Notes under the pieces: generated by a model
Told to the model about the DNA's origin: nothing
Database searches by the model: none
What the model saw: the letters and a program-made list of their open reading frames with translations, nothing else
Position numbers and translations under genes: made by a program
From: Acidobacteriota bacterium
GTDB lineage: Bacteria > Acidobacteriota > Terriglobia > Versatilivoradales > Versatilivoraceae
Length of the DNA stretch: 64,000 nucleotides
Assembly (NCBI GenBank): GCA_022821775.1
Contig: JAJECY010000107.1
Location: 861 to 64,860 of the forward strand
Reading direction: 5' to 3'
Shown here: one piece after another, positions 278 through 23,985 of the stretch
Numbering within the stretch: position 1 is the first letter of the stretch
How the letters are laid out: each line of letters begins with the position of its first letter

Positions 278-450
278 CCGCACGCCCCCCTGCCGAGGGG
301 GATCATTTATTCACATCGATGCACAGGATGCACAGGATTAACAGGACGAGACGCTGTGGCACGGGAAGCTGACTGGCTGCGTTTTCCCTCACCCGAGCCC
401 AAGGGGCGTTCCCTTTGAGTGGGTCAAGAACATTGTCTTTCTTAGTGGCC

Positions 451-528
451 CTTCGTCGTTCTTCGTGTGTCTTCGTGGATAACTCTTTTCACCCCGTCGC
501 ATGCAGCGCGAATCCGGGTTGTTTCAGG
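451..528 (-). repeat. partial copy of a ~180-bp intergenic repeat family (core CTTCGTGTGTCTTCGTGGATAACTCTTTTNACCCCGTCGCATGCAGCGCGANNCCGGGTTGTTTCAGG)
   Basis: Near-identical core is seen again at 4457-4545 and, inverted, at 13743-13830. Lies between two convergent gene ends. Confidence 0.6.
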
Positions 529-637
529 TAAGCCGCTTCCCGAAAAATCCTGTGCATCGATGTTAATAATTCGTCCAATGTAGGTCCCGGACTACGGGAT
601 GCTCGCGCTCCCGCAAGTGCCGATCACCCCTCCCCGC

Positions 638-2179
638 TCAGTTCCCCGTCTCCTGTAACGGGAAGCCTCCCTTGGGCGGATCGAAGTAGCCGTTGCCGTC
701 AACGTCGACAAAGACCGGGTTGGTGAAGGAAAAGGACCGGTAATTTTCGAAGGGTTTTTCCCAGGGGGTCTTGGAGGAAGCGATCACCAGGTACCAGCTA
801 TCCTGTTGGCAATCGACCACCAGCTCGGTATCGAACTTCCAGGCCTTGTCCTCTTCTTCCGGGGGCGACACCGCAAACGTCTTGATCACTTCGCCATTTC
901 GGATGACTTCCACGGTCTCGACCGGAACCCAGGGAGCCGACTGCAGTTGAATTCTGAGAGAAACGGAGCGATCCAGGTCTGTGATCACCGATCCCACCGG
1001 GGCGCCGTTTCCGGTGAAATGGAGGAATGGCCCCAGGCTGCCGGTGACGGCCCGCCGCTTGACGGCCTGGACGACCCTGCGGGCGTCGATTTCCCAGGGG
1101 TTGTCGGTTTCGGAAGCCACGTAGTTGCGGGGGTAGCCGAGGGAGTCCTGGGGATAGCGATGAGCGTCGGTGTTGGCTACGCCGGCCATCAGCACCCCGC
1201 GATTCAGCAGTCGGTACCAGTCCTGGAGTTTCTGATCGACCAGCCTGGTGCGGCCGATAATGGTTTCGCTCTGGTCGGTGATGGCGTTGAGGATCTCGAA
1301 GCTGTCGAAACCGGTTTCGAAATAGGGGTAGTCGAAAGCTCCGGTTTCCGCGTTGAGCCGCTCATCGAAATAGCCGCTGATGGGGCTGGAGGTCTGCCGC
1401 CGCGGATGGTTGATCTGCACGATCTGTTCGCCCGGTTCCTGCCGGACGATGCGCAGGAACTCCGCCGGGGTCCGGATGCCGTGGCGAAACTCGCGCCGTC
1501 CCCAGCGATCGATCTCCAGGGGGAAGCTGTTGAAGTGGCCGAAGGCGGTGTCGATCTCCGAACCGACAGTAGACGCAATGAAGCGCTCCAGTTTGAGCGC
1601 GCGAATGTGGGGGGAATAGTCCTTCAGGATGTTGTGGTCGGTGGCCGTGAGCAGATCGATCCCTTCGGCAGCCGACGTCATGGCCCCGTCCCGCATGGCG
1701 TACTGGAGATGGAGATGGAAGTCGGCCGAGATGAAACCGCTGGTATCCACCACGCGCTCCAGTGTCGAGTTCAGATAGGCTGTCTTGCCTTCTTCGATCT
1801 TGACCTTCTGCCGGTCCAGCGAGTATTCGGTCCCGCGCGAGACGTAGACCTGGTATTCGCCGACAGGGAGTGTCTTCAGATCCCGGCCGGAGGCCGTCAC
1901 CAGGAAGTGCTGGAATCGCCCGACCGTAGGCAGTTCTTCCCGGCCATCGTCATAGGTGAAGTAGAGCCGGGCGGGCATATGCAGATGGGACCCGGCTTCC
2001 TTGACTTCCAGGGAGAGCCTGCCGAACTTCCCGCCTTGCTGGAGGACATGAATCTCGTCGGGGTCGGGTTCGGAGGCCGGCAGAATGTCCTTCCAGTGGC
2101 TGCCGAGGGTCCCGATCAGCAGGGCCAGCAGAAGTCCCACCCGCATCCTGGATGAATTCGCTAGGCGTGTCGTCGGCAT
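638..2179 (-). CDS. secreted PHP-domain (CehA/McbA-like) metal-dependent hydrolase
   Basis: ATG at 2179 is preceded by GGAGAGGAG 5 nt upstream; an internal ATG at 2146 is an alternative start. N-terminal signal peptide (MRVGLLLALLIGTLGS). PHP motifs FHLHLQY, TATDHN and NTDAHR are present. Confidence 0.6.
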   Translation of the reverse strand: MPTTRLANSSRMRVGLLLALLIGTLGSHWKDILPASEPDPDEIHVLQQGGKFGRLSLEVKEAGSHLHMPARLYFTYDDGREELPTVGRFQHFLVTASGRDLKTLPVGEYQVYVSRGTEYSLDRQKVKIEEGKTAYLNSTLERVVDTSGFISADFHLHLQYAMRDGAMTSAAEGIDLLTATDHNILKDYSPHIRALKLERFIASTVGSEIDTAFGHFNSFPLEIDRWGRREFRHGIRTPAEFLRIVRQEPGEQIVQINHPRRQTSSPISGYFDERLNAETGAFDYPYFETGFDSFEILNAITDQSETIIGRTRLVDQKLQDWYRLLNRGVLMAGVANTDAHRYPQDSLGYPRNYVASETDNPWEIDARRVVQAVKRRAVTGSLGPFLHFTGNGAPVGSVITDLDRSVSLRIQLQSAPWVPVETVEVIRNGEVIKTFAVSPPEEEDKAWKFDTELVVDCQQDSWYLVIASSKTPWEKPFENYRSFSFTNPVFVDVDGNGYFDPPKGGFPLQETGN

Positions 2180-2496
2180 TGCATCTCCTCTCCCGGTAGT
2201 TCCCGGTTTGCCTCGGTCGCATTTTGGAACGGTCTGGAGCAGCTTGCCCCGCATTATCCACCTGTTTGCTCCCCGCGTGACAACTGAAAATAGCCCTAGA
2301 CAGGAAAATTTATAGTATCCAAGAACTACGCAACAAATGAATTCATCATTATTTCATTCCGATTTCATTTCCCAGCAACTCCTTCCTGCTAGCTTCGTCG
2401 GCCAAGCGAGGCGGTGCTTCGCCATGGGACTCACCCCGAGAAGACTGCCTGTCTATTCCAAATCGAACTCAAGACCAGAACAAAGGAAGGAAATCC

Positions 2497-4317
2497 ATGA
2501 AGAGTACCCTGTTTTCTCTCGCCGCCGTTGTCGCCGTGGCCGCGCTAGGCCTGGCTCCGGCGTCACTCGCCCGTGGCGGGAGCGTTTCCGGTGATGCCCA
2601 CGCGGCCACGCTCATTCAAAAAGACTCCGACATCGGCATGTGGATCTGGGCCGACAAGTATGTCTACCGTCCGGGTGAGCAGATGACTGTCCGGGGATCC
2701 TACCGCGTCAACCAGGACGTCCAGCCCTACGCCCTGTTTACCTATATCATCAACAACCAGACGGGTGTCAGGACGTTCTTCACCAAGAAGGAACATACGA
2801 CAAAGGATCCGCAGAATATCTTCAGCCAGACCCCGGAGGGTATTGACAGGGGATTAGGGCTCACTCGTTTGGATGTAGGAGTTTCCGAGGTGAACAAGGC
2901 GGTGATCGTGGGACCCGGCGGCTCGGCCTCGGGGATGACTTACACCATTCCCAACGAGCTCGGCATGCACACCATCGTAGTTCAACTGAGAGACTATCTG
3001 GGCGGGCGCGTTCTCAAGAACGCCTATTTCAAGATCGGGGTGGTGGATGGAACCGTCCAAGTGAGCGGCAATATCACCTCCGATACCACCTGGATGAACA
3101 CCAAGACCTACAATCTCAACGGGGTCGTCTTTGTCAAGAACGGAGCCACCCTGACCATCGAGCCCGGAACCATCATCACCGGCGAGCCCGGTTCCCAGCC
3201 GGCCTCGTCCCTCTTTGTCACGACCACCGGAAAACTGATGGCCGCCGGCACCCGCTCCCGTCCCATCACCTTCACCAGCAAGCTGCCCTTCGGCGAGCGC
3301 AATGCCGGTGATTGGGGAGGACTGGTTCTGCTGGGAGCGGCCCCGGTGAACTGGCCTACCGGCTTCGGGAACATCGAGGGACTGCCTCCCTCCGACGACA
3401 CCGAGTACGGCGGGGACGATCCTACCCATGACTGCGGAACTCTGGCCTATGTCCGGGTCGAGTTTGCGGGCGCCGAGTTTGCCCCCAACGACGAGATCAA
3501 CGCCATCACCTTCGGTGGCTGCGGCTCGGATACGGTGGCTCACCACCTGCAGGCCAAGTACGGGCTGGACGATCTCTTCGAGTGGTTTGGCGGCACCATG
3601 GACGCCAGCTACCTGGTGGGCACCTACGGCCAGGACGACTTCCTGGATATCCAGATCGGCTGGACCGGGCGCCTGCAGCACGCGGTCTGCGTGGCCGGTG
3701 TGGACCAACAGGGAAACCGCGGCATCGAGTCGGACAGCAATGAGGACGATTACGCCGCCACTCCGGTGACCGAGCCTCAGGTTTACAACGTCACCATGGT
3801 GGGAGCCGGAGACACCTACACCGAGGGCTTTGACGAGGGGACAGGCGTGGCCGGAGCCTATTTTCGCCGGGGTTCCGGTGGAAGCTACAACAATGTCCTC
3901 CTCTACAATTGGGTCAATACCGGATTCGTCGTTCTGGACCAGGAATCGGTCGACAATGGAGCGCTTTCGGTAAACGGCCTGTTGATGTGGAACAACGGGC
4001 TGATGTCGGGCCGGATGAACACCATGGCCGACCAGGTTCTCGACCCTCTTGGCAGCAAGGACAACCTGGGTCCCGAGTTTCTGCCGGGTCAGGCCAACGT
4101 CATGATTGCCGACCCCGACCTGGTGCGCCCCCTGCAGTTGAGCGACCCCGACTTCAGGCCCCGCCGGGGAGGGCCCATCTTCCGCGCCAACTGGATCCTT
4201 CCGCCGGACGACGGCTTCTTCGATCAGTCCGCCAACTATCTCGGCGCCTTCGGTGACGAGAGATGGGACGAGGAGTGGGCTCAGTATCACGTTGAAGGAG
4301 AAATGGGACCTCCGTAA
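2497..4317 (+). CDS. secreted hypothetical protein (signal peptide; beta-rich, possible beta-helix)
   Basis: AGGAAGGAAA Shine-Dalgarno precedes the ATG. Signal peptide MKSTLFSLAAVVAVAALGLAPASLA. Coding-like composition throughout. No recognised catalytic motif. Confidence 0.7.
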   Translation: MKSTLFSLAAVVAVAALGLAPASLARGGSVSGDAHAATLIQKDSDIGMWIWADKYVYRPGEQMTVRGSYRVNQDVQPYALFTYIINNQTGVRTFFTKKEHTTKDPQNIFSQTPEGIDRGLGLTRLDVGVSEVNKAVIVGPGGSASGMTYTIPNELGMHTIVVQLRDYLGGRVLKNAYFKIGVVDGTVQVSGNITSDTTWMNTKTYNLNGVVFVKNGATLTIEPGTIITGEPGSQPASSLFVTTTGKLMAAGTRSRPITFTSKLPFGERNAGDWGGLVLLGAAPVNWPTGFGNIEGLPPSDDTEYGGDDPTHDCGTLAYVRVEFAGAEFAPNDEINAITFGGCGSDTVAHHLQAKYGLDDLFEWFGGTMDASYLVGTYGQDDFLDIQIGWTGRLQHAVCVAGVDQQGNRGIESDSNEDDYAATPVTEPQVYNVTMVGAGDTYTEGFDEGTGVAGAYFRRGSGGSYNNVLLYNWVNTGFVVLDQESVDNGALSVNGLLMWNNGLMSGRMNTMADQVLDPLGSKDNLGPEFLPGQANVMIADPDLVRPLQLSDPDFRPRRGGPIFRANWILPPDDGFFDQSANYLGAFGDERWDEEWAQYHVEGEMGPP

Positions 4318-4321
4318 TTTT

Positions 4322-4349
4322 GTAGTGGCCAGTGGTCAGTGGTCAGTGG
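4322..4349. repeat. 7-bp tandem repeat GTGG(C/T)CA x4
   Basis: GTGGCCAGTGGTCAGTGGTCAGTGGTCA sits directly after the stop of the upstream gene. Confidence 0.6.
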
Positions 4350-4371
4350 TCAGCCCGGCCCCCGCCCCCAG

Positions 4372-4545
4372 GACGGGCGGATCATTCGAGAGAGAAACAG
4401 GGGACCCGGATGGCGTATCGGGAGCACGGAAAGGTTCCGGTTCCCCTCGGCCTCTCGCTTCGTGTGTCTTGGTCGTCCTTCGTGTGCCTTCGTGGATAAC
4501 TCTTTTTACCCCGTCGCATGCAGCGCGAGACCGGGTTGTTTCAGG
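4372..4545 (+). repeat. full copy of the ~180-bp intergenic repeat family (GGGCGGATCAT...CACGAAG array...GCATGCAGCGCGA..CCGGGTTGTTTCAGG)
   Basis: About 90% identical over ~175 bp to the inverted copy at 13743-13915. Partial copy at 451-528 and a diverged copy at 7700-7840. Confidence 0.65.
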
Positions 4546-4653
4546 CAGGTTGTCTGATCGACAGGTCAAGCGTCTTGTCGGCCTTGGCGCAGTGCTTCCA
4601 ATTGGCGCAGTCAGGTCATCAGGCGCTTGCCTGTTCCCGAAACCCTCGGCTGA

Positions 4654-4683
4654 CCACTCTCCACTCTTCACTCTCCACTCTTT
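4654..4683. repeat. tandem array of GAGTGGAGAGTGAAGA-type units (reverse orientation)
   Basis: CCACTCTCCACTCTTCACTCTCCACTCTT. The same unit family recurs at 7642-7697 (forward) and 7896-7928 (reverse). Confidence 0.6.
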
Positions 4684-4896
4684 CCTTTCAGCGATAATTC
4701 CCGGCGCCGGGAATCTCGGGAGGACAGCCGTGCTTCCCGCTAATCCTGTTCCCGCTGTATCCGAATTTTCCATCGGTCGATCTTAATCAATTCTTTATTC
4801 CCCCTTAACACGGTGTTCACAGGCTCGGTGTACCTTCAGCCTGCTGGCCATGAACTCCCAGGTCCTTGACCTGTGGAAAGAAAAGGAGTGACTGGA

Positions 4897-7641
4897 GTGT
4901 TCCGCTTTATAACCGTTCTGTCGTTGTTATTGCTGCTTGCCCAGAATCTGGCTGGTCAGCAAACAGGTACCGTGGCAGGGACCGTACTGGATGCCGACAA
5001 CGGCTCCTTGGTGCGGCAGGCCCGAGTCGAAGTGGGGGGTCGGCCCGAACTCTCGACCGTGACGGATCTGGACGGGTACTATTCCCTGCAACTGCCCGCC
5101 GGCACCTACCAACTGCTCTTCACCGCAGACAACTACCATGAATCCACGGTGAGCGACATCGTGGTTGCGGCCGGCGCCGTCCAGGAAGTCAGCACCGTCA
5201 TGGCCAACGTCGCCACCCAGACGGTGGTCGACGTCACCGCGGAAATCGACGCCGTCACCGCCACTGCAGAGGCCATGCTCACCGAGCGCAAGCTGGCGCC
5301 CACCGTGAGCGACAGCATGAGCCGGGACGAAATCAGCAAGTCGATGGCTTCCGATGCAGCCGGAGCGGTGGAGAAGGTGACCGGTGTCTCGGTGGTCGAC
5401 GACGGCTATGTCTACGTGAGAGGCCTGGGGGAACGCTACAGCGCCACCATGCTGAACCGGGCCATGGTTCCCACCACCGACCCCGAACGGCGGGTGGTGC
5501 CTCTGGACCTCTTTCCCGCCGCTCTGATCGACAACATCAAGGTTATCAAGACCTACTCGCCGGACATGCCCGGCGAGTTCTCGGGAGGCCTGGTTCAGAT
5601 GCAGACCATCGAGTTCCCGGTGGCGAGAACCTTCAATGCCGGCATGAGTTACGGCTTCAACAGCCAAACCACTTTCAAGGAGTTCCAAAGCTACCGGGGC
5701 GGTGAGTCCGATTTCTGGGCATACGAAGACGGGACCCGCGATGTGCCCGGCCGGATTCCGCAGACCAGGCTGTTCCCGGGCAGCTTCAGCCGGCAGGAAA
5801 TGCAGGAGTTCGGCCGGGCCTTCCCCGTCAACTGGGAGGGCACCTCCATCGACAGCGCCCGTCCCTCTCAGACCTACTCCCTTGCCGGAGGCGATACGGT
5901 GGGTCCGCTGGGCCTGGTGGGAGCCTTCACCTTCACCAACAAGGCTCAGATCTATCAGGAGGCCCGGCGTTACCTGGTAAACACCGGCGGTGGCAATATC
6001 GGCATCCGCACCGATTATCCCGATTTCGCTCGGGGCGTGGAGGCATCCCGGGTGGGGGCGGTCTTCAATGCAGCCCTGCGGCTGAACAGCAACAACAAGA
6101 TCGTTTTCCGCAATACCTACACCCACGACGCCGACAAGGAAGCCCGTCGCTTCGAAGGTCTGAATGGGGGAATCGATTTGCAAATCGTGGCCGAACGGCT
6201 GCGGTGGGTGGAACGGGGGCTGTTCTCAACGGGGATCGAAGGGGAACACAACCTGTCGGCACTGGGCAACAGCCTGATCCGCTGGCAGTACACTTATTCC
6301 CAGTCGGGCCGGGATGAGCCCGACTACAGGGAGACCATCTACCAGCGACGGGACGATGACAGCCTGGGGTTCCTGTCGCTGCCCCAATCGGCCCTGCGTT
6401 TCTACAATACGCTCGAAGACAAAATCCACGAGCCCCTGGTGGAGTGGGGGAAGCCCTTCTTCGGCAGCGGCGTTACCGGCATGTTCAGTGTCGGGGTTCG
6501 GGCCACCTTCCGGGAACGGGATTTTGCAGCCCGCCGCTTCCGCTTCAAGCCCACCAACTTCCGCCACATCGATACCAGCCTTGCCCCCAATGAACTCCTG
6601 GGACCCGACAATATCGCTCCCGACCGGTTCGTCCTGCGCGAAAACACGCGAGGCACCGACACCTATCGGGGAGACATGGACATCTTCGGCACCTTTGCCA
6701 TGCTGGATATCTCACTGGGCTCCAAGTGGCGGTTGGTGGGCGGTCTTCGCCTGGAAGACGCCCTGATTCAGGTCACCACCATCGATCCCTTGGTTCCCGG
6801 CGGGGTTCCGGCCGTTGCCGAGCTGGATAACCGCGACCCTCTGCCCGGCATCAACGTGAGCTATGCCCTGACGCCCCGGCAGAACCTGCGGTTCGGGTAT
6901 GCGCGCACCCTCAACCGACCCGACTTTCGCGAGCTCTCTCCCTTCGACTTCCTCAACGTGCTGGGTGGCTACGATACGGCCGGCAACCCCGACCTGCGGC
7001 GAGCCAAGATCGACAACTACGATGCTCGCTGGGAGTGGTTCCCGGGTGGAAACCAGGTGGTTGCCGCCAGCTATTTCCTCAAGGACTTCACCGATCCCAT
7101 CGAAACCACCATTCAGCCGACCATCAACCAGCGCCGCAGCTTCGTAAACGCCACCAGTGCCCGGAACCAGGGCTTCGAAGTCGAGTGGCGGCAGCACCTG
7201 GGCTACTTTCATGGCGGGCTGGAGCCCTTCAGCCTGCAAAGCAACTTCACCTTCGTGGACTCCAACGTCGACATTCCGCCCGAACTGGCGCTGTTGGCCA
7301 CCTCGAAGCAGCGGCCGCTGCTGGGGCAGTCCCGCTTCATCTACAACTTCGGCACCGAGTGGAACAAGCCTCAGTGGCGCAGCACGGTCCGATTCTTCAT
7401 GAATTCGGTGTCCCGCAAGATCAGCGACGTGGGCACCTTCGGCCTCCCCGATATTTTCCAGGAGGGGAATCTCTTCATGGACCTGGCCTACCTCTACACC
7501 ATCGGCGAGCGCTGGGGCGTCAAGTTTACGATCGAAAACCTGTCCGACAACGAATATCGCTGGACGCAGGCCGATCATCTGCAACGCCGTTTTCGCCTGG
7601 GACGGACCTTCAAGGTCGGAACCAGCTTCTCGCTTTTCTAA
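4897..7641 (+). CDS. TonB-dependent outer-membrane receptor with N-terminal carboxypeptidase-regulatory-like domain
   Basis: AAGGAG lies 9 nt upstream of GTG 4897; the ORF track opens at 4873. Signal peptide FRFITVLSLLLLLAQNLAG. Plug-domain motifs (DGYVYVRGLGERYSATMLN) and a C-terminal ...FSLF ending in an aromatic residue. Confidence 0.85.
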   Translation: MFRFITVLSLLLLLAQNLAGQQTGTVAGTVLDADNGSLVRQARVEVGGRPELSTVTDLDGYYSLQLPAGTYQLLFTADNYHESTVSDIVVAAGAVQEVSTVMANVATQTVVDVTAEIDAVTATAEAMLTERKLAPTVSDSMSRDEISKSMASDAAGAVEKVTGVSVVDDGYVYVRGLGERYSATMLNRAMVPTTDPERRVVPLDLFPAALIDNIKVIKTYSPDMPGEFSGGLVQMQTIEFPVARTFNAGMSYGFNSQTTFKEFQSYRGGESDFWAYEDGTRDVPGRIPQTRLFPGSFSRQEMQEFGRAFPVNWEGTSIDSARPSQTYSLAGGDTVGPLGLVGAFTFTNKAQIYQEARRYLVNTGGGNIGIRTDYPDFARGVEASRVGAVFNAALRLNSNNKIVFRNTYTHDADKEARRFEGLNGGIDLQIVAERLRWVERGLFSTGIEGEHNLSALGNSLIRWQYTYSQSGRDEPDYRETIYQRRDDDSLGFLSLPQSALRFYNTLEDKIHEPLVEWGKPFFGSGVTGMFSVGVRATFRERDFAARRFRFKPTNFRHIDTSLAPNELLGPDNIAPDRFVLRENTRGTDTYRGDMDIFGTFAMLDISLGSKWRLVGGLRLEDALIQVTTIDPLVPGGVPAVAELDNRDPLPGINVSYALTPRQNLRFGYARTLNRPDFRELSPFDFLNVLGGYDTAGNPDLRRAKIDNYDARWEWFPGGNQVVAASYFLKDFTDPIETTIQPTINQRRSFVNATSARNQGFEVEWRQHLGYFHGGLEPFSLQSNFTFVDSNVDIPPELALLATSKQRPLLGQSRFIYNFGTEWNKPQWRSTVRFFMNSVSRKISDVGTFGLPDIFQEGNLFMDLAYLYTIGERWGVKFTIENLSDNEYRWTQADHLQRRFRLGRTFKVGTSFSLF

Positions 7642-7697
7642 GTGAAGAGTGGAGAGTAGAGAGTGAAGAGTGGAGAGTGAAGAGTGGAGAGTGAAGA
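7642..7697. repeat. tandem 14-16-bp GTGAAGAGTGGAGAGT array (~3.5 units)
   Basis: Begins at the stop codon of the TonB receptor. Inverted relative to the arrays at 4654-4683 and 7896-7928. Confidence 0.6.
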
Positions 7698-7895
7698 ACT
7701 ACTTGATCGACACGCGAAGCATCTCGTCGGTCTCGGCGCAGTCCTTCGAGTCGGTCTGGACCCCGCCCCCGCGACGGGGCGGATCATCCAAAGGTGAAGA
7801 AACAAGGGTTGTTTCACGCGAGCGCCTTGTGACGAGGCCGCACTCTAATAACATCTGTGCCGAGATCAACAGGATGCTGAACGTGTCGATCACAC

Positions 7896-7928
7896 GACTC
7901 TTCACTCTCCACTAGCCACTCTTCACTG
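7896..7928. repeat. inverted partner array (ACTCTTCACTCTCCACT-type)
   Basis: Reverse complement of the 7642-7697 units. Abuts the start of the response-regulator gene. Confidence 0.55.
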
Positions 7929-8651
7929 TTGTTTCAGACCATGAAACAGTGCATTCTCGCCATCGAGGACAACAAGGATATCTGTGAAGCGGTCCGCTAC
8001 AACCTGGAAAAGGAGAAGAACTTCTCGGTGGTCGAGGCCCATACCGGGGAAGAAGGCGTCAGTCTGGCGTTCAAGCTCAAGCCGAGCCTGATCATCCTCG
8101 ACCTCATGCTGCCGGGGGTGAGCGGGTTCGAGGTCTGCCGAATCCTGCGGAGGGATCCCGAAACCCGGCATATTCCCATCCTGATCCTGTCTGCCAGGAG
8201 CACCGAGTCGGACAAGGTTCTGGGCCTGGAACTGGGCGCCAACGACTACATGACCAAGCCTTTCGGGGTTCGCGAACTGGTGGCCCGGGTCCGTTCCACC
8301 TTGAGGAAAAACGACGGACAGCAGGTGGAGTCTTACGACGACGGTCGCCTGCAGATGCACTTCGAGAACTACGAGATTCGCTTCGAGGGTGAGAACCGCC
8401 GCCTCACCCTGAAGGAATTCGGCCTGCTGAAGGCCTTGATCCTCAACGCCGGAAGGGCCCTGACCCGCGAGAAGATCCTCAACGCGGTCTGGGAATACAG
8501 CTACTACGGGGACGCCCGAACAGTGGATGTCCACATTCGCCGGATTCGTAGAAAGCTGGGGCCTAACTTCAAGGACTATATCGAAACCGTCACCGGCGTG
8601 GGCTACCGCTTCCGCCGTCCCGCTCAGCAGGCAGCCGGTTCCCTCTCTTGA
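7929..8651 (+). CDS. OmpR/PhoB-family response regulator (receiver + winged-helix); no cognate kinase adjacent
   Basis: Receiver motifs (ILDLMLPGVSGFEV, phospho-acceptor D in IILDLML). C-terminal winged helix (RTVDVHIRRIRRKLG, TVTGVGYRF). Alternative ATG at 7941. Confidence 0.85.
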   Translation: MFQTMKQCILAIEDNKDICEAVRYNLEKEKNFSVVEAHTGEEGVSLAFKLKPSLIILDLMLPGVSGFEVCRILRRDPETRHIPILILSARSTESDKVLGLELGANDYMTKPFGVRELVARVRSTLRKNDGQQVESYDDGRLQMHFENYEIRFEGENRRLTLKEFGLLKALILNAGRALTREKILNAVWEYSYYGDARTVDVHIRRIRRKLGPNFKDYIETVTGVGYRFRRPAQQAAGSLS

Positions 8652-8686
8652 ACCAGCACTTCCCTTCCTTCAAAAACTCAAGTATC

Positions 8687-8707
8687 ACTCCCCCCTTGAG
8701 GGGGAGT
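8687..8707 (+). terminator. GC-rich hairpin (ACTCCCCC-loop-GGGGGAGT), a conserved REP-like element
   Basis: 8-bp G/C stem and 5-nt loop ~35 nt after the regulator stop. The identical 26-mer ATCACTCCCCCCTTGAGGGGGAGTCG recurs inverted at 20663-20688. Confidence 0.4.
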
Positions 8708-8760
8708 CGCATAAGCCGAGCCGAATGGCGAAGGCTGATGCGGTGGGGGGCATCAGGTCG

Positions 8761-9270: not shown

Positions 9271-9272
9271 CG

Positions 9273-10583: not shown

Positions 10584-10850
10584 CGGGCTTCCTCCTCTGA
10601 TAGTTCGTCGTTCCGCTGTTTTGCAACTCGCTGGTGCGGCGTTCAGTATACACTCGCAAACCCTACCCGGAGGTGGCCTAAATCAGGAGAATCGGCATCA
10701 TTCCACGGGAAAAAGCGCTTCCTTGGCGGTATCCCGTCCCGGCTCTCCAGGAAACCGGGTCCCACTGCGACCGGACTCGATCCGGTCCTTTACATTCCTG
10801 TCGCTCCGGCGTTACATTAGGGCCACTTGGAACGATGAGGGAGTTCAATC

Positions 10851-11942: not shown

Positions 11943-11978
11943 AGTTCCGCTCGCGATTGGGGGAGCGCAAGATTAGCC

Positions 11979-13522: not shown

Positions 13523-13742
13523 GGTTCTTGGTGTTTGCCGTCCTGCAGAGCCGTGTAGCGGCTGCAACCTGCATGGAACCAGGACCGGCAAATGGACTTG
13601 TCAAACGGATTCAAGACATCCATTCTACTCTACCATGCGTGGACATGTGAGCCGTTCCCGTATTCCAGACCAGCGGGGCGGCTGGTGCGGGGTAAGGCCG
13701 TTGGAGATCAGGGCCGCGGCAAGGCTTCGGGGGGCGAACTGT

Positions 13743-13915
13743 CTGAAACAACCCGGTTTCGCGCTGCATGTGACCGAGTAAAAAGAGCTATCCACGAAGA
13801 CACACGAAGGACGACCAAGACACACGAAGCGAGACGCCGAGGGGAGCCGGCACCCTTCCGTGCTCCCGATACGCCATCCGGGTCCCCTGTTTCCCCCTCG
13901 AATGATCCGCCCGTC
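13743..13915 (-). repeat. inverted full copy of the ~180-bp intergenic repeat family
   Basis: Reverse complement aligns at ~90% identity to 4372-4545, including the CACGAAG array, GCATGCAGCGCGA and GGGCGGATCAT blocks. Confidence 0.65.
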
Positions 13916-14007
13916 GGGGGGGCGGGGGCGCGGCTTGCCTGAAACCAGTGGAGGGGGTTATCCAACAAAGACAACCACGAAGGACCGATATGAGGTATCC
14001 ACAAAAG

Positions 14008-14226
14008 GAAAACGACGGACCACGAATGGACAGGAATGAACACCAATAGACTGATTGATGAGGTGTTGATTGGAGGATGTGACAACCGAAATCGAGGATT
14101 TATTAACGAAGGACACGCAGTCATACCAGGGTAAGAAAGTTGCGGAATCATATGGGTATTGCTTGTTATTGAATGAGTTTATCTGCATTTGTGTCTATTC
14201 GTGTTCATTCGTGGTTCGTCGTTTTT
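14008..14226. repeat. MITE-like unit: ~40-bp terminal inverted repeats (AAAACGACGRACCACGAATGGACA(C/G)GAATGAACAC) flanking a ~140-bp AT-rich core
   Basis: Left arm 14008-14050 and right arm 14193-14226 are reverse complements. The core 14051-14192 is markedly AT-rich versus the surroundings. No ORF. Solo arms occur at 18452-18490 and 23931-23985. Confidence 0.4.
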
Positions 14227-14349
14227 GGAGATTGGCCGATTTCAAACGAATGATACGCACTGCAGGGCTGGGGGTCGGCTTGTCTGACGCGGCCCTGTTT
14301 CACGCCGTATGATCCGCAAAACGGGGACCGGACTTGCCGGGAGGCGCTT

Positions 14350-18333: not shown

Positions 18334-18431
18334 TTTGAGATTGTTGGGGGTGGCGTTCCGCGAAACGCCCGAGCTTGTATTGTCCTATAGAATACGGCCT
18401 TCTGCCAGGACAACTTCTCCGTGAATCTTGA

Positions 18432-20573
18432 ATGGATATATCGAAGAAGGGGAACGACGAACCACGAATGGACACGAATGAACACGAATTGCTCGGTCAC
18501 GTGAGCTGCAGCCTGCGCGGCCGGGTGGTTGCCGGCAGTTACCGGACCTGCCGGCTGACCTATACGGCCGGCTTTTACGGCATCGACGATACCGGCTCGA
18601 TCAAGGTGGCGATGCGCTATGCCACCGATTGCGGAGTGCCCCAGTTCGACCGGCCCGGCTCCCCCAACTTCACCACCGCCCGGGCATCCAATGGCGCCCG
18701 CCTCCAGTTGCGCTACGATCCCAAGGACAACCTTCGCCCCTGGGGCAAGACGCTTCACCTGAAAGTCGTGCAGGGGTACCTGCGCCAGGGGGATCGGATA
18801 GAGCTGACCCTGGGAGACCGTAGCGGCGGCTCACCCGGCTGGCGAGTTCAGACCTTCGCAGAGAAGAGCTTTGAACTGCGGGTGCTTGTAGACCGCTTCG
18901 CCACCTATTCCTTCCAACGCTTGCCGGATTCCCCCAGGTTCCGGGTGGTGGCCGGCAAGCCGGTGCGCCTGGTGGCCGTGGCTCCCACCCTGGCCGCCGC
19001 CGGTGAGCCGATTCCGGTCCGGAGCAAGCTGGAAGATCGCTGGGGCAATCCGGTGGGGCGCCCGCGAAAAAGAGTCTTCCCCGCCCTTGATGAGCCCGGA
19101 AACTACACCCTTTCCGTGAAAGACACTCGAACCGGTCTGGAGGGGCGAACCAATCCCATCCGGGTCGGCGGAGGGGAACGGTTCGGGAGATACTGGGCCG
19201 ATCTCCATGGCCAGAGCGAAGAAACCATCGGAACCAACTCCATTGGTGACTACTTTCGCTTTGCCCGCGACTACGCCTTCCTGGACATCTGCTCCCACCA
19301 GGGCAACGACTTTCAGATCACGGACGGCTTCTGGAGGAAAATCCAGGCCACCACCCGCAAGTTCCATGAACCGGGACGCCTGGTGACCTTTCCCGGTTGG
19401 GAATGGAGCGGCAATACCGCCCTGGGCGGGGACCGCAACGTGATTTTCCGGGAAGAAGGCGGGCCCATCGGCCGCAGCTCCCGCGCCCTGCTTTCCCCGG
19501 TGCAGGCCCGGGAGCCCTGCTGCCCGACCGTGGAGGAACTGTTCGCCCGCTTGCGGGATTGCGGCCGGGAGGTGATGGTCATCCCGCACGTCGGCGGACG
19601 ATTTGCCGACCTGAGCCGCCACGACCCCGGGCTGGAATGGGCGGTGGAGGTTCATTCGGCCTGGGGGACTTTCGAATGGATGTTGGCGGACGCTTTTGCC
19701 CAAGGGCATCGCCTGGCGATCGTGGCCAATTCCGACGGGCACAAGGGCCGCCCCGGAGCCAGCTATCCGGGGGCCGGCAACTTCGGCAGCTACGGGGGGC
19801 TCACCTGCGTCCTGGCCGAGAGCCTGACCCGCGAAAGCGTGTGGGAGGCCTACCGGGCCCGGCGGGTTTACGCAACCACCGGCGCTCGCATTTATCTGGA
19901 TGTCGAAACCGAAGATGGGGTTCCGATGGGGGGACTGCTCCCCGTTCGGTCCGGCTCTGCGCTCGAGTTTCGCATCCGGGTCTGCGGAACCGCTCCCATC
20001 GAGCGGGTGGAGGTCCGCAACGGGATGCAGGTGGTGAAGTGTTTTCGAACTGGCACCGCCGCCGATCTTTCCAACCGGATCAAGCTGCTCTGGGAGGGAG
20101 CCGAGGTGCGGGGGAGAGGCCGGCAGGTCGACTGGAAGGGGTCATTGACCCTGTCCGGCAATCGGATTCAAGGGGTGACCGCCCTCAATTTCCACAATCC
20201 TGATCTTCCCTGCCGGCAAACCGGCCCCGGGCGGCTCGATTGGGAATCCATCACCACCGGGGGGGTGGCCGGCCTGATCCTGGACCTGGCCCGGGCCGAA
20301 GCCGGGCGGGTTCGGGTGGAGACCCGTCAGACCCGTTTCGAGGTGGGGCTGGAAGGCCTGGGGGGAGAGGGCAGAAGCTGGGCGCTGGGCGGCCTGGACA
20401 AGCGAATTTCGCTCTACAGGCTGCCGGCCGCTAACGGCCCGGCTCATTGTGAGTTCACCTTCAGGCTTCCCGCCGGAGACTGCCGCCAGGGGGACAATCC
20501 GATCCTGGTGAAAGTGGTACAGGAGGATGGGCACATGGCCTGGTCCAGCCCGATCTATGTCGTAACAGAATAG
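18432..20573 (+). CDS. DUF3604-like hypothetical protein (possible PHP-like metallohydrolase); start uncertain (18432 or 18468)
   Basis: 713-aa ORF containing YWADLHGQSEE and ANSDGHKGRPG segments reminiscent of DUF3604. Both candidate ATGs lie inside a CACGAAT phased repeat, with no Shine-Dalgarno at either. Confidence 0.55.
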   Translation: MDISKKGNDEPRMDTNEHELLGHVSCSLRGRVVAGSYRTCRLTYTAGFYGIDDTGSIKVAMRYATDCGVPQFDRPGSPNFTTARASNGARLQLRYDPKDNLRPWGKTLHLKVVQGYLRQGDRIELTLGDRSGGSPGWRVQTFAEKSFELRVLVDRFATYSFQRLPDSPRFRVVAGKPVRLVAVAPTLAAAGEPIPVRSKLEDRWGNPVGRPRKRVFPALDEPGNYTLSVKDTRTGLEGRTNPIRVGGGERFGRYWADLHGQSEETIGTNSIGDYFRFARDYAFLDICSHQGNDFQITDGFWRKIQATTRKFHEPGRLVTFPGWEWSGNTALGGDRNVIFREEGGPIGRSSRALLSPVQAREPCCPTVEELFARLRDCGREVMVIPHVGGRFADLSRHDPGLEWAVEVHSAWGTFEWMLADAFAQGHRLAIVANSDGHKGRPGASYPGAGNFGSYGGLTCVLAESLTRESVWEAYRARRVYATTGARIYLDVETEDGVPMGGLLPVRSGSALEFRIRVCGTAPIERVEVRNGMQVVKCFRTGTAADLSNRIKLLWEGAEVRGRGRQVDWKGSLTLSGNRIQGVTALNFHNPDLPCRQTGPGRLDWESITTGGVAGLILDLARAEAGRVRVETRQTRFEVGLEGLGGEGRSWALGGLDKRISLYRLPAANGPAHCEFTFRLPAGDCRQGDNPILVKVVQEDGHMAWSSPIYVVTE
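18452..18490 (+). repeat. 10-bp-phased CACGAAT direct-repeat array (solo copy of the MITE arm)
   Basis: GAACGACGAA CCACGAATGG ACACGAATGA ACACGAATTG. Sits in the divergent promoter region and overlaps the 5' end of the DUF3604-like ORF. Confidence 0.55.
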
Positions 20574-20664
20574 CCGGAGGAGTGCCATAGACCGGCAGGC
20601 AATGGCTTGCGGGATGGGCAGTCGGCCCCCCACCGGCTCGACGGCAGACTGCGCCGTCTCTCCG

Positions 20665-20685
20665 ACTCCCCCTCAAGGGGGGAGT
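20665..20685 (-). terminator. GC-rich hairpin, inverted copy of the 8687-8707 element, preceded by a second hairpin (GACGGC..GCCGTC)
   Basis: 26/26 identity to the reverse complement of 8685-8710. Located 90-110 nt downstream of the DUF3604-like stop. Confidence 0.4.
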
Positions 20686-20804
20686 GATTACAGTTGCTCC
20701 CCACAAGGCTTCAGTGTCCCTTGCAGGAAGGGTAGGCGGCTGGTAGAGTTTGGGCTGCTCCGGCGGGGCAGGTACTGAGAACACCCGGGAGGTCGGTACT
20801 TTCC

Positions 20805-22136
20805 ATGGCCTTGGTCGACACTCGATGGCAGCGAACGGTGACCCTTTGCGCGCTCTATTTCGCCCAGGGGATTCCCTGGGGGTTCATGCTGATTTCGCTG
20901 CCCTCCTACCTCTCCTACAATTACCAGATTTCCGACAGCGATATCGGCAACCTCAAGGCCATCATCCTGGTGCCCTGGTCCTTCAAGCTGATCTGGGCCC
21001 CCTTGATGGACAGCTTCACCATTCGCTCCATGGGGAGAAGACGGCCCTGGATCATCGGTTCCGAGTTGATGATGGCCCTGACGCTGCTGGGATTCATCGG
21101 CATCGCCGACCCCTCCCAGGAGTTGAAGTTCATCCTCTACATGTACTTCCTGCACAACTGCTTCGCCTCCCTGCAGGACGTCTGCACCGACGCCCTGGCG
21201 GTCGACATTCTGCCACCGCACGAGCAGGGGCGGACCAACGGCTTGATGTGGGCCTCCAAGCTCATCGGCAAAGGCGTGGGCGCCTGGAGTCTTTCCCATG
21301 TAATCAACGTGTGGGGGCTGGAGGCCTGCGCGGCCGTTCAGGTGCTGTTGCTGCTGGCCATCATGCTGGTCCCCATAGTCTTCCTGGAGCGGCGGGGCGA
21401 GAAGCGGTTCCCCTGGAGCGCCGGCAGGGCCGGCTCCTCCGCCGTTCAGAGCGTACGCAACCCGTTAGCGACCCTGGGCAGTGTTCTCAGGGCGTTTTCG
21501 CTGACGACAACCTGGGTCTTCATCCTGTTCACGCTGCTGAAGCTGATCGGGTTGGGGGTCAACGAGGTCCTGTCCAACACGCTCTACACCCAGCACCTGA
21601 ATCCGCGCTGGACGGATGTGGAGTTCTCCAGAGCCTCCGGTCTGTATGCCACCGCTCCCATAATCGTGGGCGCCGTGATGGGAGGGTATCTGGCCGACCG
21701 CTACGGCAGGCGTTTGATTCTTGCTGTCGGCTATATTGGCTACGGGGCGGCAGCCATGATTTTCGCGGCATTCCCCGGCCTTTGGAACGAGAACTGGTTC
21801 GCCATGTCCTATGTGCTTTCCTACGAGACCCTGGCGGCCATCGGTTCGGTCGGGTTCCTCTCCATGGCCATGAGGATTTCCTGGACCGTGGCCGCGGGAA
21901 CGGTGTTCACCACCTATATGACGCTATCCAACGTTTCCCACGTCATCGGGAACTGGGCGGCCGGCCCGCTACGAGAATGGTTGATCTGGCTGCATGGCGG
22001 CGTGCCGGACAATCTGGTTTCCTACCAGTCGGCGTTCTGGTGGTTGGGCGTCATGACCATCATCCCGGTCCTTCTGTTGTTGTTGGTGCAGACCGGCGAG
22101 GTCGACCGCGCCCGCGCCGCCGAATCCGCGGGTTAG
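20805..22136 (+). CDS. MFS transporter (AmpG/PAT-family-like permease)
   Basis: About 12 predicted TM segments. N-terminal LYFAQGIPWGF...PW(S)FK(L)IWAP(L)MD motif is typical of AmpG-like MFS permeases. Confidence 0.8.
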   Translation: MALVDTRWQRTVTLCALYFAQGIPWGFMLISLPSYLSYNYQISDSDIGNLKAIILVPWSFKLIWAPLMDSFTIRSMGRRRPWIIGSELMMALTLLGFIGIADPSQELKFILYMYFLHNCFASLQDVCTDALAVDILPPHEQGRTNGLMWASKLIGKGVGAWSLSHVINVWGLEACAAVQVLLLLAIMLVPIVFLERRGEKRFPWSAGRAGSSAVQSVRNPLATLGSVLRAFSLTTTWVFILFTLLKLIGLGVNEVLSNTLYTQHLNPRWTDVEFSRASGLYATAPIIVGAVMGGYLADRYGRRLILAVGYIGYGAAAMIFAAFPGLWNENWFAMSYVLSYETLAAIGSVGFLSMAMRISWTVAAGTVFTTYMTLSNVSHVIGNWAAGPLREWLIWLHGGVPDNLVSYQSAFWWLGVMTIIPVLLLLLVQTGEVDRARAAESAG

Positions 22137-22145
22137 GGAAGACGC

Positions 22146-23261
22146 ATGCCCGATCGATACCGCATCGAAGACAGCCGCCGGCTCGCCACGCCGGCGCTGG
22201 TGGTCTTTCTGGAGCTGGTCCGGGAAAACCTGGACCGGATGGTGGCCATGGCCGGAGATCCGGCCCGCCTGCGTCCCCACGTGAAGACCCACAAGACCCG
22301 CGAGGTCGTCCAACTGCAGATGCAGCAGGGGATCGACAAGTTCAAGGCGGCCACTTTTGCCGAGTGCGAGATGCTGGCGCAGGCCGGCGCGCGGGATGTG
22401 TTGCTGGCCTACCACCTGGTGGGGCGCAACATCGAGCGGGCCGTGCGCTTCGTGCAAGCCTTTCCCGAGGTCCGGTTCATGGCGATCGCCGACCACCCCG
22501 AACCGGTGGAAGCCCTGTCCAGGGCGATGGCCGGGGCCGGACAACGGGTGGAAGTCCTGCTGGACCTGGATACCGGCCAGCAGCGCACCGGTCTTCCGGT
22601 CGGCAGCCGTGCCCGCCGGCTCTACGGCCAGATCGCCGAAAGCCCGGGGCTGCAGACGGGGGGATTTCATGTTTACGACGGCCATTTGCGCCATCCTTCA
22701 CTGGCGGAACGGACGGCCGCCGTGAAGGAGCATTTCCGGGAGGTGGACGGCTTTCGCCGGGAGTTGACGGATGCCGGCTGGGAGGTGCCGCGCCTGGTCT
22801 GCGGAGGGTCGGTCACCTTTCCCGTCTATGCCGGGATGGACGATCCGGCCATCGAGCTCAGCCCGGGCGCCTGTATCATCCACGACGCCGGATACGGAAC
22901 CGGTTTCCCCGATCTTCCCTTTGTCCCGGCAGCCGTCGTTCTGACCCGCGTCATCAGCCTGCCGGGGGAGAACCGGGTCACGCTGGACCTGGGCTACAAA
23001 GCCGTGGCTTCCGACCAACCCATGGAAACGCGGGCGGTTTTTCCCCAATTGCCCGACGCCGAGCTGGTCCTGCAGAACGAAGAGCACCTGGTGATTGAGA
23101 CCTCCCGCGCCGGGGATTTGCGCCCTGGAGACGAATTGACGGCCATTCCCTGGCACATCTGCCCCACCACCGCCTTGAACAAGGATGTGGTGGTGGTCAG
23201 CCGGGGACGCATCCTGGAGCGCTGGGAAGTGGCTGCCCGGGACCGCTGCCTGACGGTTTAG
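22146..23261 (+). CDS. alanine-racemase-domain PLP enzyme (D-serine dehydratase/D-threonine aldolase-like, DSD1 family)
   Basis: PLP-lysine motif HVKTHKT near the N-terminus. Starts 10 nt after the MFS stop (operon). Confidence 0.7.
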   Translation: MPDRYRIEDSRRLATPALVVFLELVRENLDRMVAMAGDPARLRPHVKTHKTREVVQLQMQQGIDKFKAATFAECEMLAQAGARDVLLAYHLVGRNIERAVRFVQAFPEVRFMAIADHPEPVEALSRAMAGAGQRVEVLLDLDTGQQRTGLPVGSRARRLYGQIAESPGLQTGGFHVYDGHLRHPSLAERTAAVKEHFREVDGFRRELTDAGWEVPRLVCGGSVTFPVYAGMDDPAIELSPGACIIHDAGYGTGFPDLPFVPAAVVLTRVISLPGENRVTLDLGYKAVASDQPMETRAVFPQLPDAELVLQNEEHLVIETSRAGDLRPGDELTAIPWHICPTTALNKDVVVVSRGRILERWEVAARDRCLTV

Positions 23262-23293
23262 GCGCTATTCCTCGAAACGTCGGCGATCGATCC

Positions 23294-23362
23294 ATGAAGG
23301 ACAAAAGATATCCACCAAGGGGCACGAAGGACCACGAAGGGGCACGAAGAAGAACGAGGAGA
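23294..23362 (+). repeat. 10-bp-phased direct-repeat array ATCCACCAAG GGGCACGAAG GACCACGAAG GGGCACGAAG AAGAACGAGG
   Basis: Five decamers carrying CACGAAG at a fixed phase. Lies in a convergent intergenic region. Confidence 0.5.
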
Positions 23363-23439
23363 AGATAAGTTCCTTTGCGCCCGGGCGGCGGCTTTGGGCA
23401 AGCTTGGAGTCCGTCGATCCTGTTGATTCAGGCCGGGCT

Positions 23440-23835
23440 TCAGCCGCTGGCGGAACGCCGGCCGGCAGCCTGGAGCCTCCAATCCCGCCAGTTGACCCAG
23501 GCCGAGACCCCCAGGGCGGCCACTCCGAAGAATACCACCGAGGCGTCCAGCAGGTCCGGATCCCAATCCCCTCCCGTCAGCCGGTCCATGTAGTACTTGA
23601 TAAACGAGTTCGGAAGCCCGGTTTCGCCCATGGCTTCCTTAATCTGCCAGTGCCAGTCGGTGCTGGGGCAGTAGCCGAAGCCGTAGAACCATCCCAGGCC
23701 GAACCAGGAGAAGAGGGTGAGGATCATCAACCCCAGGTGAAAGCGGCGGGTTCGCCTCCAGATCCATCCCGTCAGGTTGAAAACGATCTGAACGGTGTGG
23801 AAGACCATGAAAAAGAGGTCCAGGAAAGCATACAT
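23440..23835 (-). CDS. DUF2784-family small membrane protein
   Basis: Start MYAFLDLFFMVFHTVQIVFNLTGWIWRR. Four hydrophobic segments. The ORF-track start at 23883 is an upstream extension. Confidence 0.55.
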   Translation of the reverse strand: MYAFLDLFFMVFHTVQIVFNLTGWIWRRTRRFHLGLMILTLFSWFGLGWFYGFGYCPSTDWHWQIKEAMGETGLPNSFIKYYMDRLTGGDWDPDLLDASVVFFGVAALGVSAWVNWRDWRLQAAGRRSASG

Positions 23836-23930
23836 GGGACGACCTCGAACGAAGCTGGTTAGTGGGGCCGCCGTCCGAGACAACGGGACGGATCATGCAG
23901 GATGAAACAGGGGCGCGTCATCGATCCGCC

Positions 23931-23985
23931 TATTGGTGTTCATTCGTGTCCATTCGTGGTTCGCCGTTTTCCTTTGTGGATGGCT
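23931..23985 (-). repeat. solo copy (inverted) of the MITE-arm phased CACGAAT array
   Basis: Reverse complement reads AAAACGGCGAACCACGAATGGACACGAATGAACACCAATAG. Lies in a divergent intergenic region. Confidence 0.5.

Follow-up and report, generated by a model that had tools for sequence, protein, structure and literature searches.

Dispersed, gene-less repeats that lie between bacterial genes, often as inverted pairs downstream of them, are well known from repetitive extragenic palindromes (REPs) and their hairpin-forming doublets (REPINs), which co-evolve with a small, repeat-flanked nuclease or transposase gene. The products of these genes, the REP-associated tyrosine transposases (RAYTs), are HUH/Y1 enzymes related to TnpA of IS200/IS605 and usually single-copy, while the REPs themselves are imperfect palindromes of 20-40 nt with a GTAG motif that act as hairpins. 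A different design is seen at the TnsB sites of Tn7, the ends of Mu, and En/Spm, where inverted ends contain multiple subterminal transposase-binding repeats. Direct repeats phased at exactly 10 bp are in turn what binding sites of OmpR/PhoB-type regulators look like. Finally, a report on Coxiella burnetii describes a 428-nt intervening sequence (IVS) of the 23S rRNA whose open reading frame (ORF) encodes S23p (PMC4990558). Here we analyzed a stretch of 64,000 nucleotides from an Acidobacteriota bacterium (contig JAJECY010000107.1; "the window" throughout) with phased arrays of CACGAA(G/T) in its first 24 kb. Judged by homologues alone, the window would come from a planctomycete, with named hits near 60% in Planctomycetaceae and Pirellulaceae and with PSCyt/PSD1/DUF1501 neighbors. 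An earlier reading of these letters (the original prediction) had preferred operators of an OmpR-family regulator and had named structural parts of a mobile repeat family as an alternative. The turnover of the arrays between relatives and the presence of the same modules around genes of the GxxExxY family support that alternative, and we conclude that the window arrays are very probably gene-less arms of GxxExxY mini-elements, i.e., debris of mobile elements rather than operators. This element family is apparently undescribed and very widespread.

The window arrays and the ends of GxxExxY elements

All eight sites for which CACGAA(G/T) arrays had been reported do contain them, and the exact 10-bp phase is equally real: successive cores lie 10 or 20 bp apart within every array (core positions 461/471; 4458/4478/4488; 13793/13803/13823; 14197/14207; 18463/18473/18483; 23323/23333/23343; 23942/23952). 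The word CACGAAK occurs 36 times in the window compared to 16.0 +/- 3.9 times after dinucleotide-preserving shuffling, a count reached in 0 of 100 shuffles. Scanning the window for three phased CAC..A units gave 12 overlapping hits that form 8 modules of 3-4 decamers each, all within positions 441-23958, while the same scan of 30 block shuffles gave 0-3 hits (mean of about 0.2). Different sequence families do share this phasing, as the original prediction had it, and they fall into two module types. The G-type reads ATC-CACGAAG (in the form aaaagagTTATC-CACGAAG, with 4 units; the dash marks the outer boundary here and below) and is found in arrays A, B, C, and G. The T-type reads AAC-CACGAAT, has 3 units plus a degenerate fourth (AACGACGAAC), and is found in arrays D, E, F, and H, with aacgacgAAC-CACGAATGRA-CACGAATGRA-CACNAAT as its window form; these four copies have a unit of about 43 nt in common and are 86-90% alike.

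441-489, minus strand: array A, G-type, aaaagagTTATC - CACGAAGACA - CACGAAGAAC - GACGAAGGGC - CACTAAG, without partner arm and without gene
4458-4506, minus strand: array B, G-type, 4 units of which the third is degenerate (GACCAAG), outer end as in A, GGATAACTCTTTTT
13780-13829, plus strand: array C, G-type, aaaaagagcTATC followed by CACGAAG x4 with a degenerate third unit
14009-14048, plus strand: array D, T-type, aaaacgacgGAC - CACGAATGGA - CAGGAATGAA - CACCAAT, left arm of a convergent pair with E
14186-14226, minus strand: array E, T-type, right arm of the D/E pair
18451-18490, plus strand: array F, solo T-type, ggaacgacGAAC - CACGAATGGA - CACGAATGAA - CACGAAT
23301-23349, plus strand: array G, G-type, acaaaagaTATC - CACCAAGGGG - CACGAAGGAC - CACGAAGGGG - CACGAAG, in a convergent gap
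23931-23973, minus strand: array H, solo T-type, upstream of a DUF2784 gene

Arrays D and E form a MITE-like pair (miniature inverted-repeat transposable element) around an AT-rich, gene-free interior of 139 nt, and the other modules of the window are solo. D and H additionally share a repeat of 58 nt with 90% identity. DUF2784 as the cargo of a G/H pair was considered and dismissed: G is of the G-type and H of the T-type, and H is absent from one relative (L210, see below) while DUF2784 is present in all three genomes.

The link to GxxExxY genes is most direct for the T-type. A sequence-only model (R1) built from 99 arms that flank GxxExxY genes matched array F with 42.8 bits (E = 2.4e-12), H with 39.9 bits (E = 2.1e-11), E with 39.0 bits (E = 3.8e-11), and D with 27.2 bits (E = 2e-7); these matches cover model positions 3-34 of 35, and no other hit in the window had E < 0.4. 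All four arrays match the 30-nt module of GxxExxY arms, AAC followed by three times CACGAAT plus RRA. Arms of the G-type, ATC-CACGAAG, flank GxxExxY genes of another subfamily (loci L112 and L212-L231) and share with the window modules the outer end (A)AAGAG-TT-ATC, behind which CACGAAG units follow in phase. The GxxExxY genes of L212-L231, which are metagenome contigs, sit in restriction-modification operons in two contexts, either between a methyltransferase and an SNF2 helicase gene or between hsdR and hsdM. The right end of the hsdR-GxxExxY-hsdM elements, CTTCGTGGATAACTCTTT, is identical to the outer end of arrays A and B, and the outer 16-mer of these two arrays, AGAGTTATCCACGAAG, recurs unchanged as the right end of elements L222-L231.

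The same outer bases also invite a reading of the arrays as a DnaA-box cluster or other replication-related repeats, since the start of the G-type, TTATCCAC, agrees with the DnaA box TTATCCACA at 8 of 9 positions, and arrays A-D and G have TTATCCACG, GTATCCACA, and ATATCCACC at their outer ends. The resemblance is confined to variable outer bases of G-type arms, though: the bases before ATC differ across genomes (ttATC, tgATC, taATC, tcATC), and the T-type has AAC in their place. Furthermore, the eight sites are spread over 24 kb, the cumulative GC skew shows no inflection there, and the genes scanned in the first 26 kb included neither dnaA nor dnaN. We therefore rejected an oriC/DnaA-box cluster and give this explanation next to no probability.

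Anatomy and arm words of the GxxExxY element

A pattern-first scan for CACGAA-N4-CACGAA-N4-CACGAA in one genome per species (185,579 species) returned at least 120 loci. The module shape (A/T)(A/T)C-CACGAAK-nnA-CACGAAK-nnn-CACGAAK is common to at least 120 genomes of many phyla, with Chloroflexota, Acidobacteriota, Verrucomicrobiota, Planctomycetota, Kiritimatiellota, Hydrogenedentota, Heliobacteria, Halofilum, Nitrosomonas, and others as carriers among the matches listed. Among these matches, 174 of 181 arrays have exactly 3 units, and inverted pairs within 1.5 kb are mostly convergent (38 versus 5 divergent) with gaps of 0 to about 400 nt. The profile outside the fixed pattern revealed a sharp outer boundary, with T-n-A-(A/T)-C directly before CACGAA, and an A preceding units 2 and 3. 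Clustering of the ORFs in the array-bearing loci listed singled out GxxExxY as the only specific family, and in six loci a gap of about 380-400 nt between paired arms encloses a gene for a protein of about 125 amino acids. A larger transposase was sought in this clustering and not found, the big clusters consisting only of ABC ATPases and of histidine kinase/response regulator proteins, which are generic. Gene-less arms, whether solo, in hairpins, or in short pairs, far outnumber complete elements. In two Blastocatellia loci (L007 and L010), arrays of a CAGGAT type adjoin CACGAAG arms.

Complete elements were characterized in a protein-first sample. Of 600 candidate stretches from metagenomes, 557 proved to encode relatives, and the sample consists of the best 80 of these. 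Scripted detection found an arm pair bracketing the GxxExxY gene in 70 of these 80 (best 80 of 557 relatives), and the raw flanks around nearly all genes read TTAAC-CACGAATGRACACGAATGRACACGAAT before and ATTCGTGTYCATTCGTGTYCATTCGTG-GTTAA after the gene. The complete element has a median length of 435 bp and consists of a 30-bp left arm, one GxxExxY gene for about 125 amino acids, and an inverted right arm. The left arm comprises AAC plus three 10-bp units, each with a conserved word of 7 nt such as CACGAAT, and the terminal inverted repeat spans exactly positions -3 to +26 with an abrupt stop on both sides. The left arm also holds the first in-frame ATG in 49 of 59 elements, at an offset of 5, 15, or 25; since the unit measures 10 nt, the three CACGA-ATG units of T-type left arms (L121-L200) offer an ATG in each of the three frames. 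G-type units (CACGAAGGA/GGGG) look like Shine-Dalgarno sequences repeated every 10 nt. At the other end, the stop codon of the GxxExxY gene usually abuts the right arm.

The surroundings of complete elements follow a common pattern as well. According to a crude calling of neighboring ORFs, 46 of 57 elements have a co-oriented ORF that ends no more than 45 nt before the left arm, most commonly with a TAA at -4 to -2 that overlaps the AAC of the arm, and a co-oriented ORF begins no more than 80 nt downstream in 42 of 49. Complete elements sit co-directionally inside host operons. On 9 contigs, two paralogous complete elements with 86-89% DNA identity occupy different sites that flank one host gene. 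Irregular duplications of 20-45 bp of host sequence flank complete elements at only a few sites (L164/L177/L180 and L142/L144/L157) and may hold a clue to the mechanism of insertion.

The protein encoded between the arms matches TIGR04256 (122 and 138 bits) and PF13366 (PDDEXK_3) and is a PD-(D/E)XK nuclease with the conserved catalytic residues E35 (the E of GxxExxY), D74, D/E84, and K86. Its family is very large: the close relatives of a single query alone make up 7199 clusters at 90% identity, and at 50% identity there are 8778 clusters with E <= 1e-3. Tandem two-domain proteins of about 250-390 amino acids also exist, including fusions of about 260 amino acids (P0177, P0186, P0215, P0227, P0231, and others), which suggests a dimer or a larger assembly as the working unit. 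An AlphaFold2 (AF2) model from a diverse alignment reached a predicted local distance difference test score (pLDDT) of 92.4, while a model from a shallow alignment (pLDDT of 42) was not used. The best fold matches of the former in the Protein Data Bank (PDB) were 4ic1 (Cas4 SSO0001), 3ijm, 3syy, 6m9k, and 3sm4, among them a restriction endonuclease-like protein and the lambda and LHK exonucleases, all of them weak (Foldseek E of about 1e-3, template modeling score of 0.42-0.57); a profile search of PDB sequences matched no solved structure. In a survey of the superfamily from 2012, the function of PDDEXK_3 was listed as unknown (PMC3424549), and we found nothing in the searchable literature on the function of GxxExxY/TIGR04256/PF13366, on flanking repeats, or on an association of the gene with repeats.

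The words in the arms vary in a concerted manner. Positions 4-5 of the word are GA in most elements, AG in 6 of 6 units of four elements, and GG in 6 of 6 units of two, so that all six units of an element read CACAGAT or CACGGAT together. Six elements have AG or GG in at least 5 of 6 units, compared to at most 1 in 2000 shuffles, and the AG and GG groups coincide with protein clades (90% and 86% identity within them versus 65-70% to the rest). L196 is intermediate: the outermost unit of each of its arms has GG, and the inner ones have AG. More distant GxxExxY genes on IMG/VR contigs have three-unit arms with yet other words (CGCGAAAAG, CCGGATGAA, CAAATGAAA, CGGAATWAA, CGCAGAAWA, CACGGAT, and CACGAAA), and variants of the arm words are also found in cultured organisms; Treponema saccharophilum (pTS1) and Gemmatirosa kalamazoonensis (plasmid 1) are examples of cultured carriers. 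Because six units change together in both orientations, a single element-encoded reader of the words would explain the pattern more easily, and the nuclease is the only product that the element encodes.

Inverted arms that bracket a gene or form short hairpins could also act as RNA, with co-transcribed arms pairing into a stem of about 30 bp that is processed (e.g., by RNase III, as happens with intervening sequences of the 23S rRNA) or controls translation or termination. The co-orientation of complete elements with their neighbors, their start at the upstream stop codon, and the ATG in the left arm would all suit such a role, and the Coxiella IVS (PMC4990558) likewise sits in a host transcript as selfish DNA with a single small ORF. 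Yet the spacers between the words show no compensatory pairing: counted over the spacer positions, the two arms vary independently (position 18 is Watson-Crick in 14 of 63 elements), and mismatches of the G-U type are not favored over those of the A-C type (91 versus 71, about equal). It is thus the word in each arm, at one-turn spacing, that is kept and not the stem, a pattern typical of a protein-binding array and not of a selected RNA or DNA stem. A stem by itself accounts neither for words with a period of 10 bp nor for the joint change of all six, the word is conserved and phased per arm, solo arms are common, and Rfam gave no match. We consider an RNA element unlikely as the explanation of the arrays, although a role of the RNA in expression could coexist with one of the DNA.

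Alternatively, the arm hairpins might be an independent dispersed repeat, with GxxExxY as a free-standing homing-endonuclease gene whose product cleaves empty hairpins so that the gene is copied into their center, and the window arrays would then be unoccupied targets. Homing endonucleases with a PD-(D/E)XK fold exist (e.g., I-Ssp6803I), hairpins without the gene are far more numerous than filled ones, a target-site duplication was looked for and not found, and arms that vary with the protein are what one would expect of a recognition site. This scenario needs a second mechanism for the spread of the hairpins, however, and is at odds with a sharp outer arm boundary and with arms that accompany the gene into many unrelated flanks; for recombinational homing, 30 bp of homology per arm would also be short. 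We regard it as quite unlikely overall, but since static data do not separate homing into landing pads from internal deletion of complete elements, homing into empty hairpins stays a live variant of the reading as GxxExxY arms.

Turnover between relatives and the operator reading

A comparison of orthologous intergenic regions in relatives, as the original prediction had suggested, revealed turnover. Two syntenic relatives were compared over a stretch of 21 kb each that corresponds to about 12,000-33,000 of the window and covers arrays C, D, E, F, G, and H. In L210 (92% protein identity), G is kept and C is kept in diverged form at orthologous sites while D, E, F, and H are missing (4 of 6 modules), and two arrays of L210 (8460-8496 and 18670-18706) have no counterpart in the window. 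L211 (81%) lacks 6 of 6 modules, its 21 kb being free of arrays. In both relatives, the flanking genes are conserved. The G-type modules of the window are older and the T-type modules recent in this lineage, and the close similarity of the four T-type copies with their common unit fits such a recent spread. At D/E, L210 lacks a stretch of about 400 nt, and a host motif of about 40 bp (ATGATCCGCC..GGGGCGGGG..CTTGCC) is present in three copies around the D-E insertion (13903-13940, 14248-14290, 14298-14340) compared to one in L210; at H and F, the intergenic DNA is too diverged from L210 to place exact insertion boundaries. Arrays A, B, and C are moreover embedded in a longer local repeat:

435-544, minus strand: partial copy of the longer window-specific repeat, carrying array A, starts CCTGAAACAACCCGG...AAAAGAGTTATC
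4337-4548, minus strand: 212-nt repeat carrying array B, 89% identical to 13739-13950
13739-13950, plus strand: 212-nt repeat carrying array C; 86 nt upstream of the arm are a window-specific insertion relative to L210
13960-13985, plus strand: degenerate G-type start, ggTTATCCAACAAAGACAACCACGAAGG, within the stretch of about 400 nt that is absent from L210

The outer part of this local repeat (13739-13785, 4502-4548, 498-544) begins with the 12-mer CCTGAAACAACC, and at 18630-18650 of L210 this 12-mer forms the end of the DUF1501 gene up to and including its TGA stop, with a G-type arm right behind it. A piece of a former host flank may therefore have moved along with the local repeat.

The window holds further repeats. 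Tandem heptamer arrays at 4324-4353, 4654-4681, 7641-7697, and 7897-7927 (AGTGGTC x4.3, CCACTCT x4, AGTGAAG/AGTGGAG x8, and ACTCTCC x4.4) form inverted pairs, one of which brackets the array-B element and the other about 200 nt between a TonB-dependent receptor gene and a response-regulator gene. They resemble the short tandemly repeated repetitive (STRR) sequences of cyanobacteria, and the loci fetched from other phyla hold many other heptamer words. Similarly, a 9-mer array (GATGCACAG x3.2 at 300-346) and its inverted partner at 547-576 enclose the array-A element, so that one type of repeat is nested within another. A dispersed, hairpin-containing repeat (ATCACTCCCCCCTTGAGGGGGAGTCG...) is found in inverted orientation in two intergenic gaps (8684-8730 and 20642-20688). 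Direct repeats in the second half of the window (49494-49588 versus 51402-51480; 47858-47908 versus 48412-48462; 61991-62572) lie next to or inside genes and are probably paralogous gene starts or repeated protein domains.

How such an arm can affect its surroundings is seen at array F, which overlaps the 5' end of a DUF3604 ORF as the original prediction had noted. It stands in place of the ancestral 5' end of this gene (18432-18500 of the window; 6178-6330 of L210; 4875-5120 of L211), where the two relatives share the ancestral sequence gaaaccaaStccRaYcWtctcgg. The ORF of the window runs from an in-frame, arm-borne ATG at 18468 and begins with MDTNEHELLGHVSC, compared to (M)KTNSESLGHVSC in L210; array F thus appears to supply the start codon and the first ~8 residues.

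The reading that the original prediction had preferred, with same-face repeats bound by an OmpR-family regulator that controls the adjacent genes, has correct observations on its side. Direct repeats at exactly 10-bp spacing are found in all arrays, the gene at 7929-8651 does encode a response regulator with a receiver and a Trans_reg_C domain, and three arrays lie in divergent, promoter-containing gaps. But according to a gene map based on GC content at third codon positions (GC3), all arrays are intergenic and are distributed over 2 convergent, 1 tandem, and 3 divergent gaps; the convergent placement had been pointed out before, and neither it nor the tandem gap is where promoter-linked operators would be expected. 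The gene-carrying copies sit just after the stop codon of a co-oriented gene inside operons, the modules form inverted pairs with sharp ends, and the turnover described above shows that they come and go while flanking genes stay. The identical module is found in at least 120 genomes of many phyla and is tied to a small nuclease gene instead of any regulator. The operator reading is therefore not supported and in our view very improbable, and the window arrays are most probably not regulatory sites of neighboring genes. Phasing that fails in other copies, which the original prediction had named as evidence against its view, was not seen; it holds everywhere. Of the two features that it had given for a pure mobile element, the lack of promoter enrichment was found and bounding target-site duplications were not.

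Several points weigh against the reading of the arrays as GxxExxY arms and against a role of the nuclease in their mobility. Neither a GxxExxY gene nor a remnant of one was found in the 64-kb window, including the D/E interior, by tblastn or by a hidden Markov model search of the six-frame translation, so that for the window copies the link is made by homology of the arm sequence. The T-type model R1 gave only E of about 0.4-1.5 on the G-type arrays, and the case for G-type membership, made by three independent gene-carrying loci and the shared 16-mer, is thinner than that for the T-type. A and B lie outside the 21 kb that were compared between relatives. The 80 genes of the protein-first sample are the closest relatives of one protein and include repeated orthologous sites, and the arm finder demanded CAC..AT, so that conservation at those five positions per unit is partly by construction; boundaries, AAC, spacers, and word positions 4-5 are outside this filter. 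No target-site duplication of fixed length was detected, the longest common substrings of the two flanks not exceeding those of shuffled pairings, and for this reason the element is not a classical cut-and-paste transposon. Finally, shared descent of arm and gene explains part of the co-variation of words and proteins, and it is only this co-variation, i.e., the coincidence of concerted word changes with protein clades, that suggests binding of the nuclease to the decamers.

Possible mechanism and comparison with known systems

For the complete element, we propose a mechanism that we hold tentatively, as a nearly balanced call. The words lie one helical turn apart and thus all three on one face of the DNA, where the element's own nuclease may bind them, three per arm. 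The bound nuclease would then pair the two ends and cut at or near the sharp outer boundary, and this cutting would let the unit be copied or moved. Since the element starts at the upstream stop codon and has its own start codon inside the left arm, expression probably occurs by read-through from the host and translational coupling to that stop codon. Gene-less arms behave like relics of the MITE or REPIN type, and the window modules are all of this kind.

A stronger version of this proposal, which is possible but which we hold with rather more doubt, is that the 125-amino acid PD-(D/E)XK nuclease is the sole mobility enzyme of the smallest autonomous bacterial DNA element known (about 435 bp). 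Such an element would have two 30-bp arms, each built of three phased words, would insert at stop codons within operons without a target-site duplication, and would be expressed by coupling to the host gene. With thousands of protein clusters across many phyla and MITE/REPIN-like gene-less arms, it would amount to a new enzymatic class of mobile element. If the nuclease suffices for mobility, the element would be unusually small and its protein a compact one that recognizes phased DNA words.

The link of the very large GxxExxY/PF13366 family to a defined phased DNA site provides a testable hypothesis for its function, and reading the arrays as its arms accounts for a class of intergenic repeats and hairpins seen time and again in Planctomycetota, Verrucomicrobiota, Acidobacteriota, Chloroflexota, and other groups. 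For genome annotation, it is a warning that such arrays should not be taken for operators of regulators and that arms can rewrite gene starts, as at DUF3604.

Among the known systems that the arrays or the element resemble, the operator, pure RNA-stem, and DnaA-box readings are each contradicted by our tests. Like OmpR/PhoB operator arrays, the window arrays are direct repeats with a spacing of 10-11 bp on one helix face; unlike them, they are not linked to promoters, not conserved with flanking genes, spread across phyla, arranged in inverted pairs, and traveling with a nuclease gene. With the 23S rRNA IVS, the GxxExxY element shares a size of about 430 nt, a single small ORF, inverted repeats at both ends, and a selfish existence inside a host transcription unit, but it lies outside rRNA, its ORF encodes a nuclease and not a four-helix-bundle protein, and its arms show no compensatory changes. 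An identity of the window arrays with such an IVS was rejected, given the non-compensatory spacers and the absence of rRNA from the window; a search with Rfam at the gathering threshold found no family there, and no tRNA or tmRNA genes were found in the window either. The GxxExxY protein has the E...D...(D/E)xK signature of the Cas4, lambda exonuclease, and restriction endonuclease folds and is much smaller, with no Fe-S or extra domains seen.

Compared to transposons with terminal inverted repeats and their MITEs, the GxxExxY element shows inverted ends of phased repeats, sharp termini, multiple copies with presence/absence differences, and gene-less copies that outnumber autonomous ones. It differs in lacking a target-site duplication of fixed length and a DDE, HUH, serine, or tyrosine recombinase, in inserting co-directionally at stop codons inside operons, and in its size of only about 435 bp; the smallest insertion sequences that we know of, at about 700 bp, are larger. 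With REPIN/RAYT systems, it shares many gene-less short repeats, a single small gene flanked by inverted copies, and the co-evolution of repeat and protein. Identity with REPs or bacterial interspersed mosaic elements (BIMEs) and their RAYTs was nevertheless rejected, since there is no palindromic GTAG unit and the flanked gene encodes a PD-(D/E)XK and not an HUH/Y1 enzyme. In the GxxExxY element, a 125-amino acid nuclease of that fold is combined with three phased direct decamers in place of a palindrome, and gene-carrying units are multi-copy and found at many sites. REPIN/RAYT is therefore the closest known architecture, followed by MITEs with their parent transposons, while enzyme class, repeat design, size, and insertion habit set the GxxExxY element apart.

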